Sequence record: FJ483842.1
Reading direction: 5' to 3' (one strand)
Length of the DNA: 4,218 nt
DNA from: Escherichia phage Qbeta
Made by a program: the position numbers and the translations under genes. The first letter of the stretch is position 1. Each line of letters begins with the position of its first letter. A model generated the notes under the pieces. The model was given only the letters and a program-made list of their open reading frames with translations. It was not told the DNA's origin and made no database searches. Below, piece after piece: positions 62 to 4,218 of this stretch.

Positions 62-1324
62 ATGCCTAAATTACCACGTGGTCTGCGTTTCGGAGCCGAT
101 AATGAAATTCTTAATGATTTTCAGGAGCTCTGGTTTCCAGATCTCTTTATCGAATCTTCCGACACGCATCCGTGGTACACACTGAAAGGTCGTGTGTTGA
201 ACGCTCACATGGATGACCGCTTACCTAATGTAAGTGGTCGCCAAGTACGGCGTACTCCACATCGCGCTACTGTTCCGATTGCCTCTACAGGCCTTCGTCC
301 AGTAACAACCGTTCAGTATGATCCCGCAGCACTATCGTTCTTATTGAACGCTCGTGTTGATTGGGATTTCGGTAATGGCGACAGTGCGGACCTTGTCATT
401 AAAGACTTTGTTTTCCGTACCTTTGCACCTAAGGATTTCGATTTCTCGAATTCCTTAGCTCCTCGTTATACCCAGGCCTTCTCCGCCTTTAATGCCAAAT
501 ATGGCGTTATGATCGGTGAAGGGCTCGAGACTATAAAATATCTCGGGCTTTTACTGCGCAGACTGCGTGAGGGTTACCGCGCTGTTAAGCGCGGCGATTT
601 ACGTGCTCTTCGCAGGGTTATCCAGTCTTACCATAAAGGTAAATGGAAACCGACTACTGCTGGTAATCTCTGGCTTGAATTTCGTTATGGCCTTATGCCT
701 CTCTTCTACGACATCAGAGATGTTATGTTAGATTGGCAGAGCCGCCATGATAAGATTCAACGCCTCCTTCGATTTTCAGTTGGTCATGGTGAGGACTACG
801 TTGTCAAGTTTGACAACTTGTATCCCGCCTTAGCCTACTTTAAACTGAAAGGTGAGATTACTCTCGAACGCCGTCATCGTCATGGCATATCTTACGCGAA
901 TCGCGAAGGATATGCTGTTTTCGATAACGGTTCCCTTCGGCCTGTGTCCGATTGGAAGGAACTTGCCGTCGCGTTCATCAATCCTCACGAAGTTGCTTGG
1001 GAGTTAACTCCTTACAGCTTCGTTGCCGATTGGTTTTTGAACGTTGGCGACATACTTGCTCAGCAAGGTCAGCTATATCATAATATCGAGATCGTAGATG
1101 GTTTCGACAGACGTGACATACGGTTCAAATCATTCACTATTAAAGGTGAACGAAATGGACAGCCTGTTAACGTATCTGCGGACTTATCTACTATCGATAC
1201 ATTTTATAGTCGACTTCATGCTAGCAATATTCCGTTCGCTACACTAGATCTCGATACTACCTTTAGTTCGTTTAAACACGTCCTAGATAGTATCTTTTTA
1301 TTAACCCAACGCATTAAGCGTTGA
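62..1324 (+). CDS. A2: Maturation protein A2 (pilus attachment protein; in Qbeta also the lysis protein, a MurA inhibitor)
   Basis: ORF of 420 aa, ATG at 62 preceded by a Shine-Dalgarno-like AAGAGGA, TGA stop at 1322..1324. It is the first gene, as in the levivirus order maturation - coat - replicase. The protein (MPKLPRGLRFGADNEILNDFQELWFPDLFIESSDTHPWYTLKGRV...) matches my recollection of Qbeta A2 along its whole length, with scattered substitutions; Qbeta A2 is also 420 aa. Confidence 0.93.
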   Translation: MPKLPRGLRFGADNEILNDFQELWFPDLFIESSDTHPWYTLKGRVLNAHMDDRLPNVSGRQVRRTPHRATVPIASTGLRPVTTVQYDPAALSFLLNARVDWDFGNGDSADLVIKDFVFRTFAPKDFDFSNSLAPRYTQAFSAFNAKYGVMIGEGLETIKYLGLLLRRLREGYRAVKRGDLRALRRVIQSYHKGKWKPTTAGNLWLEFRYGLMPLFYDIRDVMLDWQSRHDKIQRLLRFSVGHGEDYVVKFDNLYPALAYFKLKGEITLERRHRHGISYANREGYAVFDNGSLRPVSDWKELAVAFINPHEVAWELTPYSFVADWFLNVGDILAQQGQLYHNIEIVDGFDRRDIRFKSFTIKGERNGQPVNVSADLSTIDTFYSRLHASNIPFATLDLDTTFSSFKHVLDSIFLLTQRIKR

Positions 1325-1345
1325 AACTTTGGGTCAATTTGATCA
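1250..1345 (+). promoter_or_regulatory. Probable S-site region (S1/replicase binding site upstream of the coat start), including a U-rich tract near 1290..1310
   Basis: Seen in sequence: an A/U-rich stretch (TATCTTTTTATTAA at about 1293..1306) at the 3' end of A2, just upstream of the coat initiation region. Established knowledge: Qbeta replicase binds an S-site at about nt 1247..1346 through ribosomal protein S1, which represses coat translation. The boundaries are taken from the literature by position, not derived from this sequence. Confidence 0.35.
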
Positions 1346-1746
1346 TGGCAAAATTAGAGACTGTTACTTTAAGTAACATCGGGAAAGATGGAAAGCAAAC
1401 TCTGGTCCTCAACCCGCGTGGGGTAAATCCCACTAACGGTGTTGCCTCGCTTTCAGAAGCGGGTGCAGTTCCTGCATTGGAGAAGCGTGTTACCGTTTCG
1501 GTATCTCAGCCTTCTCGTAATCGTAAGAACTACAAGGTCCAGGTTAAAATCCAGAACCCGACCGCTTGTCCTGCAAACGGTTCTTGTGACCCATCCGTTA
1601 CTCGCCAGGCATATGCTGACGTGACTTTTTCGTTCACGCAGTATAGCACCGATGAGGAACGAGCTTTTGTTCGTACAGAGCTTGCTGCTCTGCTCGCTGG
1701 TCCTCTGCTGATCGATGCTATCGATCGACTGAACCCAGCGTATTGA
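1345..1746 (+). CDS. cp: Major coat (capsid) protein
   Basis: ATG at 1345..1347 and leaky TGA stop at 1744..1746 give 133 codons. The translation (MAKLETVTLSNIGKDGKQTLVLNPRGVNPTNGVASLSEAGAVPALEKRVTVSVSQPSRNRKNYKVQVKIQNPTACPANGSCDPSVTRQAYADVTFSFTQYSTDEERAFVRTELAALLAGPLLIDAIDRLNPAY) is near-identical to the Qbeta coat as I recall it, including the two Cys of the disulfide-forming loop. The ORF-track start at 1321 is a TTG that overlaps the A2 stop and is not the true start. Confidence 0.95.
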   Translation: MAKLETVTLSNIGKDGKQTLVLNPRGVNPTNGVASLSEAGAVPALEKRVTVSVSQPSRNRKNYKVQVKIQNPTACPANGSCDPSVTRQAYADVTFSFTQYSTDEERAFVRTELAALLAGPLLIDAIDRLNPAY

Positions 1747-2334
1747 ACATTGCTCATTGCCGGTGGTGGCTCAGGGGAAAACCCCGATCCGGTTGATCCG
1801 GATCCACCGATTGATCCGCCGCCAGGGACAGGTAGTTATACTTGTCCCTTCGCAATTTGGTCTCTGGAAGAGGTTTATGAGCCTCCTACCATTGATCGAC
1901 CGTGGCCTATCTATCGTGCTGTTGAACTCTCGTCTCGCAAGTTTGATGTTGCCCTTGATGATCTCTTGGGTAACACTAAATGGCGTGACTGGGATTCTCG
2001 GCTTAGGTATACCACGTTCCGCGGTTGCCGTGGCAATGGTTATATTGACCTTGATGCGACTTATCTCGCTACTGATCAAGCTATGCTCGATCAGAAGTAC
2101 GATATTCGCACGGGCAAAAGACCTGGTGCCTTTGGCAAAATTGAACAATTTATTTATCTTAAGTCGATAAATGCATATTGTTCTCTCAGCGATATTGCGG
2201 CCTATCACGCCGACGGCGTAATAGTTGGCTTTTGGCGCGATCCATCTAGTGGTGGTGCCATACCGTTTGACTTCACTCAGTTTGATAAGACTAAATGTCC
2301 TATTCAAGCCGTGATAGTCGTTCCTCGTGCTTAG
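1345..2334 (+). CDS. A1: A1 read-through protein (minor capsid protein): coat protein extended through the UGA at 1744..1746, about 329 codons
   Basis: Seen in sequence: the 1750..2334 ORF is in the same frame as the coat, and only the single TGA at 1744..1746 separates them. The stop is followed by A (UGA-A, a leaky context). The extension begins with a Gly/Pro-rich linker (GGGSGENPDPVDPDPPIDPPPGTGS) and ends ...CPIQAVIVVPRA, followed by tandem stops TAG TAA (2332..2337). Established knowledge: Qbeta A1 arises from low-frequency read-through of the coat UGA by tRNA-Trp and is needed for infectivity. Confidence 0.85.
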
Positions 2335-2348
2335 TAACTAAGGATGAA

Positions 2349-2368
2349 ATGCATGTCTAAGACAGCAT
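2349..2368 (+). promoter_or_regulatory. Replicase translational operator hairpin (coat-protein binding site) enclosing the replicase start codon
   Basis: Seen in sequence: ATGCATGTCTAAGACAGCAT folds as an 8-bp stem (2349-2352 and 2354-2357 pairing with 2361-2368), with a bulged A at 2353 and a 3-nt loop UAA (2358..2360). The replicase ATG (2353..2355) lies inside the stem. Established knowledge: this is the architecture of the Qbeta operator through which coat protein dimers repress replicase translation. Confidence 0.7.
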
Positions 2369-4122
2369 CTTCGCATAACTCTCTTAGCGCACAATTGCGC
2401 CGAGCTGCGAACACAAGAATTGAGGTTGAAGGTAACCTCGCACTTTCCATTGCCAACGACTTAATGTTGGCATATGGTCAATCGCCATTTAGTTCTGAGT
2501 CTGAGTGTATTTCACTCAGCCCGAAATTCGACGGAACCCCGGATAACTTTAGGATAAATTATCTTAAAGCCGAGATCATGTCGAAGTATGACGATTTCAG
2601 CCTAGGTATTGATACCGAAGCTGCTGCATGGAAGAAGTTTCTAGCAGCAGAGGCTGAATGTGCTTTAACGAACGCTCGTCTCTATAGACCTAACTACAGT
2701 GAGGATTTCAATTTCTCACTGGGTGAGTCGTGTCTTCACATGGCTCGCCGAAAAATAGTTAAGTTGATAGGAGATGCTCCGTCCGTTGAGGGTATGTTGC
2801 GTCATTGCCGATTTTCTGGCGGTGCCACAACAACGAATAACCGTTCATATGGTCATCCGTCCTTCAAGTTTGCGCTTCCACAAGCGTGTACGCCTCGGGC
2901 TTTGAAATATGTTTTGGCTCTTAGAGCTTCAACGCATTTCGATATCAGAGTTTCTGATATTAGCCCTTTTAATAAAGCAGTTACTGTACCAAAGAACAGT
3001 AAAACCGATCGCTGTATTGCTATCGAACCCGGTTGGAATATGTTTTTCCAATTAGGTATCGGTGGCATTTTACGTGATCGGTTGCGTTGTTGGGGTATCG
3101 ACCTGAATGATCAGACGATAAACCAGCACCGCGCTCACGAGGGCTCCGTTACTAATGATTTAGCAACGGTTGATCTCTCAGCGGCAAGCGATTCTATATC
3201 TCTTGCTCTCTGTGAGCTCTTATTACCTCCAGGTTGGTTTGAGGTCCTTACGGATCTCAGATCACCTAAGGGGCAATTGCCTGACGGTAGTGTTATTACC
3301 TATGAGAAAATTTCTTCCATGGGTAATGGTTACACATTCGAGCTCGAGTCGCTTATTTTTGCTTCTCTCGCCCGTTCCGTTTGTGAGATACTGGACTTAG
3401 ACTCATCTGAGGTCACTGTTTACGGAGATGACATTATTTTGCCATCCCGTGCAGTCCCTGCTCTTCAGGAAGTCTTTAAGTATGTTGGTTTTACTACCAA
3501 TACTAAAAAGACTTTCTCTGAGGGGCCGTTCAGAGAGTCGTGCGGTAAGCACTACTATTCTGGCGTAGATGTTACTCCCTTTTACATACGTCGCCGCATA
3601 GTGAGTCCTGCCGATTTAATATTGGTTTTGAATAACCTATATCGGTGGGCCACGATTGACGGCGTATGGGATCCTAGAGCCCATTCTGTATATCTCAAGT
3701 ATCGTAAGCTGCTGCCTAAACAGCTGCAGCGTAATACTATACCTGATGGTTACGGTGATGGTGCTCTCGTCGGATCGGTCTTGATCAATCCTTTCGCGAA
3801 AAACCGCGGGTGGATCCGGTATGTTCCGGTGATCATAGACCATACAAGGGACCGAGAACGCACTGAGTCAGGATCGTATCTCTACGATCTTTTCTCGCGC
3901 TGCTTCTCGGAAAGTAACGATGGGTTGCCTCTAAGGGGTCCGTCGAGTTGCGATCCTGTATATCCACTTGCCATAGATCAGCTTATATGTAAGAGTAATC
4001 CTACAAAAATAAGCAGATCTACTGGTAAGTTTGATGTACAGTATATCGCGTGCAGTAGCCGTGTTCTGGCACCCTACGGGGTCTTCCAGGGCACGAAGGT
4101 TGCGTCTCTACACGAGGCGTAA
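2353..4122 (+). CDS. rep: RNA-dependent RNA polymerase, replicase beta subunit
   Basis: ORF ending at TAA 4120..4122. Starting at ATG 2353 (AGGA at 2341..2344, 8 nt spacer) gives 589 aa, the size of the Qbeta beta subunit; the in-frame ATG at 2344 would add MKC but sits on top of the SD. Catalytic motifs are intact: motif A Asp at 3172..3174 (VDLSAASD) and motif C YGDD at 3421..3432. The sequence MSKTASSHNSLSAQLRRAANTRIEVEGN... matches my recollection of Qbeta replicase, with substitutions. Confidence 0.95.
   Translation: MSKTASSHNSLSAQLRRAANTRIEVEGNLALSIANDLMLAYGQSPFSSESECISLSPKFDGTPDNFRINYLKAEIMSKYDDFSLGIDTEAAAWKKFLAAEAECALTNARLYRPNYSEDFNFSLGESCLHMARRKIVKLIGDAPSVEGMLRHCRFSGGATTTNNRSYGHPSFKFALPQACTPRALKYVLALRASTHFDIRVSDISPFNKAVTVPKNSKTDRCIAIEPGWNMFFQLGIGGILRDRLRCWGIDLNDQTINQHRAHEGSVTNDLATVDLSAASDSISLALCELLLPPGWFEVLTDLRSPKGQLPDGSVITYEKISSMGNGYTFELESLIFASLARSVCEILDLDSSEVTVYGDDIILPSRAVPALQEVFKYVGFTTNTKKTFSEGPFRESCGKHYYSGVDVTPFYIRRRIVSPADLILVLNNLYRWATIDGVWDPRAHSVYLKYRKLLPKQLQRNTIPDGYGDGALVGSVLINPFAKNRGWIRYVPVIIDHTRDRERTESGSYLYDLFSRCFSESNDGLPLRGPSSCDPVYPLAIDQLICKSNPTKISRSTGKFDVQYIACSSRVLAPYGVFQGTKVASLHEA
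2545..2870 (+). promoter_or_regulatory. Approximate M-site (internal replicase binding site) within the replicase gene
   Basis: Established knowledge only: in Qbeta the M-site lies at about nt 2545..2867. It is placed here by positional homology, since the window appears collinear with Qbeta with a +1 offset. I did not fold this region and cannot confirm the branched structure. Confidence 0.3.
2973..2980 (+). other. Candidate upstream partner of the long-range pseudoknot with the 3'-terminal hairpin loop
   Basis: Seen in sequence: TAAAGCAG (2973..2980) can pair antiparallel with CTGCTTTG (4196..4203) in the loop of the 3'-terminal hairpin, 7 Watson-Crick pairs plus one G-U. Established knowledge: Qbeta needs a pseudoknot between the 3' hairpin loop and a sequence about 1200 nt upstream, near the M-site; the distance here is about 1220 nt. 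Confidence 0.45.
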
Positions 4123-4218
4123 CCTGGGAGGGCGCTATTATAGCGCCTAGTTGTGAATCAATTATCACAACTACTCTTACGAGTGAGAGAGGGATCTGCT
4201 TTGCCCTCTCTCCTCCCA
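4123..4218 (+). promoter_or_regulatory. 3' untranslated region with three hairpins (4131..4147, 4151..4170, 4185..4212) and the 3'-terminal CUCCCA tail, the initiation site for minus-strand synthesis
   Basis: Seen in sequence: GGCGCTA/TAGCGCC stem (4131-4137 with 4141-4147, loop TTA); TTGTGA/TCACAA stem (4151-4156 with 4165-4170); GAGAGAGGG/CCCTCTCTC 9-bp stem (4185-4193 with 4204-4212, 10-nt loop ATCTGCTTTG), followed by a single-stranded CTCCCA 3' end. Established knowledge: levivirus RNAs end in ...CCCA, with replicase initiating opposite the penultimate C. Confidence 0.7.

Follow-up and report, generated by a model that had tools for sequence, protein, structure and literature searches.

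We found that the stretch of DNA analysed here, a window of 4218 nt, almost certainly carries coat/A1 from a strain of Qβ (Qubevirus durum), in which the A1 protein is made by read-through of the UGA codon that closes the coat reading frame. An earlier note on this DNA had proposed a recoding event and not a separate gene, and this proposal is borne out by the homology of the extension to the A1 domain, the conservation of the in-frame UGA, purifying selection and the absence of initiation signals. The feature is a classical case, already known and annotated in dozens of records; the coat read-through of Qβ was the first programmed stop-codon read-through to be described (PMC13517186). It matters little as a discovery, and the recoding event was recognised correctly from raw sequence alone. 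Our data indicate that the diagnostic signals are a UGA that stays invariant while the other stops drift, indels of whole codons only, and an extension that is under purifying selection and homologous to a known domain. Neither the tetranucleotide UGA-A nor the double stop that closes the extension is diagnostic.

The window spans a whole Qβ-type genome

The sequence belongs to a Qβ-type ssRNA phage (Qubevirus durum), whose genome is complete in the window. Strain VK (FJ483843) aligned with it from end to end at 95.7% identity and was the best match in the phage collection, and approximately 30 further Qβ genomes aligned at approximately 92% identity. Exact GenBank matches were found for A2 (ACT66737.1), for the coat protein (ACT66738.1, "capsid protein [Escherichia phage Qbeta]") and for the replicase (ACT66740.1). 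As these accessions lie between those of FJ483841 (ACT66733-36) and FJ483843 (ACT66741-44), the window very probably corresponds to FJ483842 of that deposited series. Along the window the Pfam domains follow the order PF03863, PF01819, PF16814 and PF03431 (maturation, Levivirus coat, read-through domain and replicase β-chain), such that A2, coat/A1 and the replicase β subunit all lie within approximately 4.2 kb. The genome begins 5' GGGG... and ends ...UCCUCCCA 3' (...tctcctccca), which fits the 3'-end signature quoted for the Qβ type (PMC6071253). Many bacterial elongation factor Ts proteins (283 aa) share the 90%-identity protein cluster of the replicase (2353..4119); these are presumably a clustering artefact of engineered replicase/EF-Ts fusions and do not reflect the biology of the window.

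The coat frame continues for 195 codons beyond a single UGA

The coat gene with its stop, the extension with its terminators, the stem-loop domain at 1762..1823 and the hairpin at 2330..2342 lie on the plus strand. Translation of 1345..2340 gave a coat ORF of 133 codons, a single stop, 195 sense codons and two further stops. The coat CDS, which is also the N-terminal part of A1, occupies 1345..1743 (133 codons including the initiator Met) and matches PF01819 (Levi_coat) over its full length (E = 3.8e-60); its coordinates are those of the annotated capsid CDS of strain VK. The leaky stop signal lies at 1744..1749, with UGA at 1744..1746 followed by ACA, the A being at 1747. The A1 read-through extension runs in the coat frame from 1747 to 2331 (195 sense codons, assigned to PF16814 and to the structures 3RLC/3RLK) and is closed by tandem terminators at 2332..2337, UAG at 2332..2334 and UAA at 2335..2337. 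Each element that the earlier note had described, namely the single UGA closing the coat ORF and the same frame open for 195 codons beyond it, was thus found where it had been placed. With the base composition of the window, the probability that 195 codons beyond a stop stay open by chance is approximately 5e-5, and 1 in 20,000 shuffles of the 585 nt lacked an in-frame stop. The remaining two frames over the same stretch contain 5 and 23 stops.

Coat, Trp and extension together, minus the initiator Met, have a computed mass of 35.99 kDa, in agreement with the fused product of approximately 36 kDa that had been expected. The predicted tryptic peptide across the junction, LNPAY-W-TLLIAGGGSGENPDPV...TIDR, is approximately 56 residues long. 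The extension opens with a Gly-rich and then Pro-rich segment, TLLIAGGGSGENPDPVDPDPPIDPPPGTGS (1747..1836), in which Gly and Pro make up 47% of the first 30 residues, compared to 18% over the whole extension. The description of this segment as a flexible Gly/Pro-rich linker holds for its composition, but not for its flexibility throughout, since a review of the crystal structure describes the Pro-rich part of the A1 linker as a long helix of the polyproline type II (PMC8067240).

The extension is the A1 read-through domain

We found that the extension matches the Pfam family PF16814, "Read-through domain", at E = 1.1e-96 over residues 17-194 (322 bits vs a cut-off of 27) and the solved Qβ A1 domain (PDB 3RLC/3RLK) at E = 3e-118 over residues 12-195, the structure being approximately 90% identical. 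The extension is 94.9% identical to that of VK, 90.8% to that of laboratory Qβ and 73-74% to those of M11 and MX1. The comparison with the Qβ A1 read-through domain that had been suggested as a check therefore came out in favour of the proposal, by identity, by structure and by family.

A translated search found relatives of the extension in 85 phage records. Among the matches listed, all lie under a read-through/A1 CDS except for one partial entry that has no feature there; the CDS under the match in SP is labelled "hypothetical protein" and carries a readthrough note. In VK and TW18, the coat and read-through CDSs are annotated at the coordinates of the window (in VK, 1345..1746 and 1345..2334). 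Neither the exact 329-aa A1, with W or X at the stop, nor the exact TTG-initiated product of 194 aa was found in the protein collection, and in both searches the control from strain VK was likewise not found, so that these absences carry no weight.

An independent gene within 1750..2334, starting from the TTG three bases past the coat stop or from an internal start and yielding a free protein of approximately 21 kDa, is very improbable. The mechanical ORF list does give 1750..2334 with a TTG start (194 aa), just as the earlier note had said. The further expectation that the stretch would be miscalled as an independent ORF by annotation did not hold in the records examined, all of which give a fused CDS that begins with the coat gene; wherever a record has a feature under the match, that feature is the fused product, which counts against a separate gene. 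No Shine-Dalgarno-like match was found within 20 nt upstream of TTG 1750, and the other in-frame start-type codons, TTG 1966, ATG 2083 and GTG 2311, are also without one. In contrast, the replicase AUG is preceded by UAAGGA. At the sequence level the extension thus has no ribosome-binding site and start of its own, in line with the claim that start-site signals are absent. The TTG itself, the codon for residue Leu2 of the extension, is replaced by CTG in laboratory Qβ and by GCG or GCA (Ala) in M11, MX1, SP, FI and NL95, and therefore no start codon is conserved at 1750. Furthermore, the frame relation to the coat gene survives every indel.

Two other reading frames overlap the extension. The ORF at 1757..2170 (137 aa, +1 frame) was rejected as a chance ORF, as its 140 codons are open in this strain alone; in nearly all the other Qβ strains the frame is closed at codon 39-42, and other relatives stop elsewhere. 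An ORF is also present on the minus strand at 1771..2307; no translation of the complementary strand is known in ssRNA phages.

The in-frame arrangement is conserved and under purifying selection

We compared 12 genomes from both Qubevirus species, nine of Q. durum (including M11 and MX1) and three of Q. faecium (SP, FI and NL95), and in addition two environmental contigs (IMG/VR). One in-frame UGA is present at the end of the coat gene in 12/12 genomes and 2/2 contigs, down to 40% amino-acid identity. The extension is open for 195-199 codons in the relatives and none has an in-frame stop. Indels in the extension comprise whole codons only, and most lie within the Gly/Pro-rich segment. The stop codons of the other genes drift among the genomes (A2, UGA or UAA; replicase, UAA, UAG or UGA; A1, UAG or UAA), whereas that of the coat gene is always UGA.

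The extension has a dN/dS of 0.10-0.22 (Nei-Gojobori, against 8 relatives, with saturation for SP and NL95), comparable to 0.03-0.29 for the coat gene, and third-position changes dominate. This purifying selection indicates that the extension is translated in the coat frame and is functional. The arrangement that the earlier note had expected to persist in relatives, if read-through were the explanation, is accordingly present throughout the 12 genomes and 2 contigs, with an extension under purifying selection.

These data bear on whether the read-through could be background noise at an ordinary UGA, with a functionless frame downstream, which we judge highly unlikely. Basal read-through of UGA is measurable in E. 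coli, and the stop context is not special, the A2 gene also ending in UGA-A. Noise does not account for an extension with a dN/dS of 0.10-0.22 that forms a folded domain of solved structure, nor for a frame that stays open in genomes only 40% identical (chance approximately 5e-5), nor for a coat stop that is always UGA where the other stops vary among UGA, UAA and UAG.

The least probable reading, to which we give almost no weight, is that the UGA is not a stop (a sense codon of an alternative code, a selenocysteine codon or a sequencing error of UGG): a stable downstream structure superficially recalls a bacterial SECIS element, but this structure starts 15-17 nt past the UGA and does not adjoin it, no SECIS or other Rfam family was found even at E <= 1, the close relatives all have E. 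coli as host and the standard code, UGA is present in 14 independent sequences, the coat protein of 132/133 residues is the major capsid subunit, of which structures have been solved (PDB entries), and Trp is reported at this position in the Qβ literature (PMC6526423, PMC6071253). The Rfam scan covered the whole window at E <= 1 and returned only a sub-threshold plant miRNA (25.5 bits vs a gathering cut-off of 74), which we attribute to chance.

Stop codon context does not distinguish the coat stop

The presence of A after UGA is reported to make this stop codon leaky in E. coli. The earlier note had relied on a leaky UGA-A context, and UGA followed by A is indeed what the window contains. As a discriminating sign it fails: the coat UGA is followed by A in the Qβ/M11/MX1 group and by G in SP, FI and NL95, and A2 ends in UGA-A as well. 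Because A2 ends in the same tetranucleotide and the genogroup IV relatives use UGA-G, we reason from the sequence comparison that UGA-A alone cannot explain why the coat stop would be "programmed". In a 2026 review, the hexanucleotides are given as UGAACU and UGAGCR and are not counted among the standard classes of read-through (PMC13517186).

The UGA-A of the A2 gene lies at 1322..1325, and the next in-frame stop, also UGA, follows five codons on (1322..1342 in the window). In BZ1 and MX1, A2 and the coat gene share one reading frame, and read-through there would extend for 140 codons, into and through the coat ORF.

The closing UAG UAA had also been taken as part of the signature. The two stops are present at 2332..2337, but they are restricted to the Qβ/M11/MX1 group: UAG UAA is kept in nine of the nine Q. 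durum genomes and in both environmental contigs, and SP, FI and NL95 have a single UAA.

Proposed course of A1 synthesis

Under the read-through explanation, ribosomes would start at the coat AUG at 1345 and would mostly terminate at the UGA at 1744..1746, so that the product is the major coat protein of 14 kDa. In a few percent of cases, release factor 2 would lose out to Trp-tRNA(Trp) at this codon, and translation would continue in frame for 195 more codons up to UAG UAA at 2332..2337, giving the 36-kDa minor capsid protein A1. A1 would join the capsid via its coat part and display the globular read-through domain on a Gly/Pro-rich stalk, and would be required for infectious particles. For this isolate, we infer the insertion of Trp, read-through of approximately 3-7%, incorporation into virions and essentiality from published work on Qβ itself, whose extension is 91% identical.

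In Qβ, A1 shares the start of the coat protein and the UGA is read as Trp, with read-through rates given as 3-5%, approximately 5% or 1/15 (PMC6526423, PMC6071253, PMC8067240, PMC7026636, PMC13517186). Read-through of UGA in E. coli is a competition between the ternary complex of Trp-tRNA(Trp) and RF2. A1 is present in a few copies per Qβ virion and is needed for infectivity, its exact role being unknown (PMC6071253, PMC7026636, PMC8067240). Reviews report that Qβ infectivity is lost when the UGA is changed to UAA or when the extension is truncated (PMC6071253, PMC7026636).

A conserved RNA structure lies downstream of the UGA

We found a predicted RNA stem-loop domain at 1762..1823, beginning 15-17 nt 3' of the UGA, which is supported by minimum-free-energy (MFE) and centroid folds, an RNAalifold consensus and covariation. 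Its outer helix pairs GGUGGUGG (1762..1769, Gly codons 6-8) with CCGCCGCC (1816..1823, Pro codons 24-26). The MFE and centroid folds agree, and the domain has a z of -4.6 vs shuffles; in a sliding scan of the genome (195 segments of 126 nt), the stretch 3' of the UGA ranked within the three most stable segments. Across the 12 genomes, 94.4% of cells are paired and 7 pairs are changed on both sides, with the covariation coming mostly from the split between the two species and so amounting to few independent events, and with Gly (GGN) and Pro (CCN) codons being inherently complementary. In the covariation controls, 0/500 shuffles scored as high, and the slid controls collapsed. The same bases encode the Gly/Pro-rich protein linker and the RNA helix.

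A distance of 15-17 nt from the stop, judged by ribosome footprints, is probably too far for the helix to abut a ribosome with UGA in its A site. We consider a role of the 1762..1823 helix in read-through possible but unlikely. By the same measure, it is doubtful that the helix tunes read-through by slowing the ribosome or shaping the mRNA and, separately, that the hairpin at the A1 terminators (2330..2342) couples A1 termination to initiation of the replicase. The downstream structure of Qβ is listed as "not determined" in the 2026 review (PMC13517186).

Directly 3' of the helix lies a perfect 11-bp hairpin, GGGACAGGUAG-UUAU-ACUUGUCCC (1824..1849), the sequence of which shows good conservation within the Qβ group and weaker conservation in SP, FI and NL95. 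A hairpin of 4 bp that would place the UGA in its loop (1737..1754) was rejected, as across the genomes it shows only one-sided changes and some broken pairs. The conserved RNA structures that flank the extension are cheap targets for work on what sets the level of read-through and replicase translation in display and evolution systems based on Qβ.

Relation to known phages and to other leaky coat stops

The architecture described here is identical to that of A1 in VK, TW18, BZ1, HL4-9, laboratory Qβ, M11 and MX1, and VK and TW18 have the same coordinates. With these two strains the window shares the 133-codon coat ORF, UGA-A, the 195-codon extension and UAG UAA. The differences are substitutions at strain level; compared to laboratory Qβ, for example, 18 of the 195 extension residues differ, mostly in the linker and the first third of the domain. 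HL4-9 and FrMerlot have 1- and 3-codon insertions in the linker, which the strain in the window does not have.

Members of Qubevirus faecium (SP, FI and NL95; former Allolevivirus genogroup IV) have a single UGA and an in-frame extension of 197-199 codons with a domain of the same family. They retain the Gly/Pro-rich start, the downstream helix and the hairpin at the stop and Shine-Dalgarno sequence, with compensatory changes. They differ in having UGA-G, a single UAA terminator, and an extension that is 40-46% identical and carries extra residues.

The MS2-type phages (former Levivirus) have the same order of maturation, coat and replicase genes, a coat protein of the same fold family (PF01819) and an operator hairpin at the replicase start. 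Unlike the phage described here, they have no read-through extension and contain a separate lysis gene; in the Qβ type, lysis is performed by A2 (PMC6071253).

Outside the phages, a comparable arrangement is found in luteoviruses and poleroviruses (BYDV, BWYV), which differ in that their read-through proteins are unrelated to A1 and their translation system is eukaryotic. Their extension also begins Pro-rich; read-through there takes place at a UAG codon and relies on C-rich repeats further downstream together with a distal element. As in Qβ, beside which they are listed, a leaky coat stop leads to a minor capsid component, in their case with a C-terminal surface domain required for transmission (PMC7026636 Table 1).

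The A1 terminators, the replicase start and the 3' region

The A1 stops lie within a predicted hairpin, CUUAG-UAA-CUAAG (2330..2342), that also holds the 5' part of the replicase Shine-Dalgarno sequence (UAAGGA). Pairing within this hairpin amounts to 97.5% over the 12 genomes, and 3/5 pairs show compensatory changes. Because the double stop sits in a conserved hairpin together with the replicase Shine-Dalgarno sequence, constraints on the RNA may preserve the bases of UAG UAA no less than a need for fail-safe termination does.

The mechanical ORF of the replicase starts at ATG 2344, but the close relatives all annotate the equivalent of ATG 2353. The AUG at 2353 lies within a bulged hairpin, AUGCAUGUCUAAGACAGCAU (2349..2368), that is 92% paired across the 12 genomes and whose position and shape are those of the coat-protein operator. 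At the other end of the replicase gene, this strain has an in-frame UAG six codons past the replicase UAA (4120..4143); in VK, laboratory Qβ, BZ1 and TW18, the frame past the replicase UAA is open to the 3' end of the genome.
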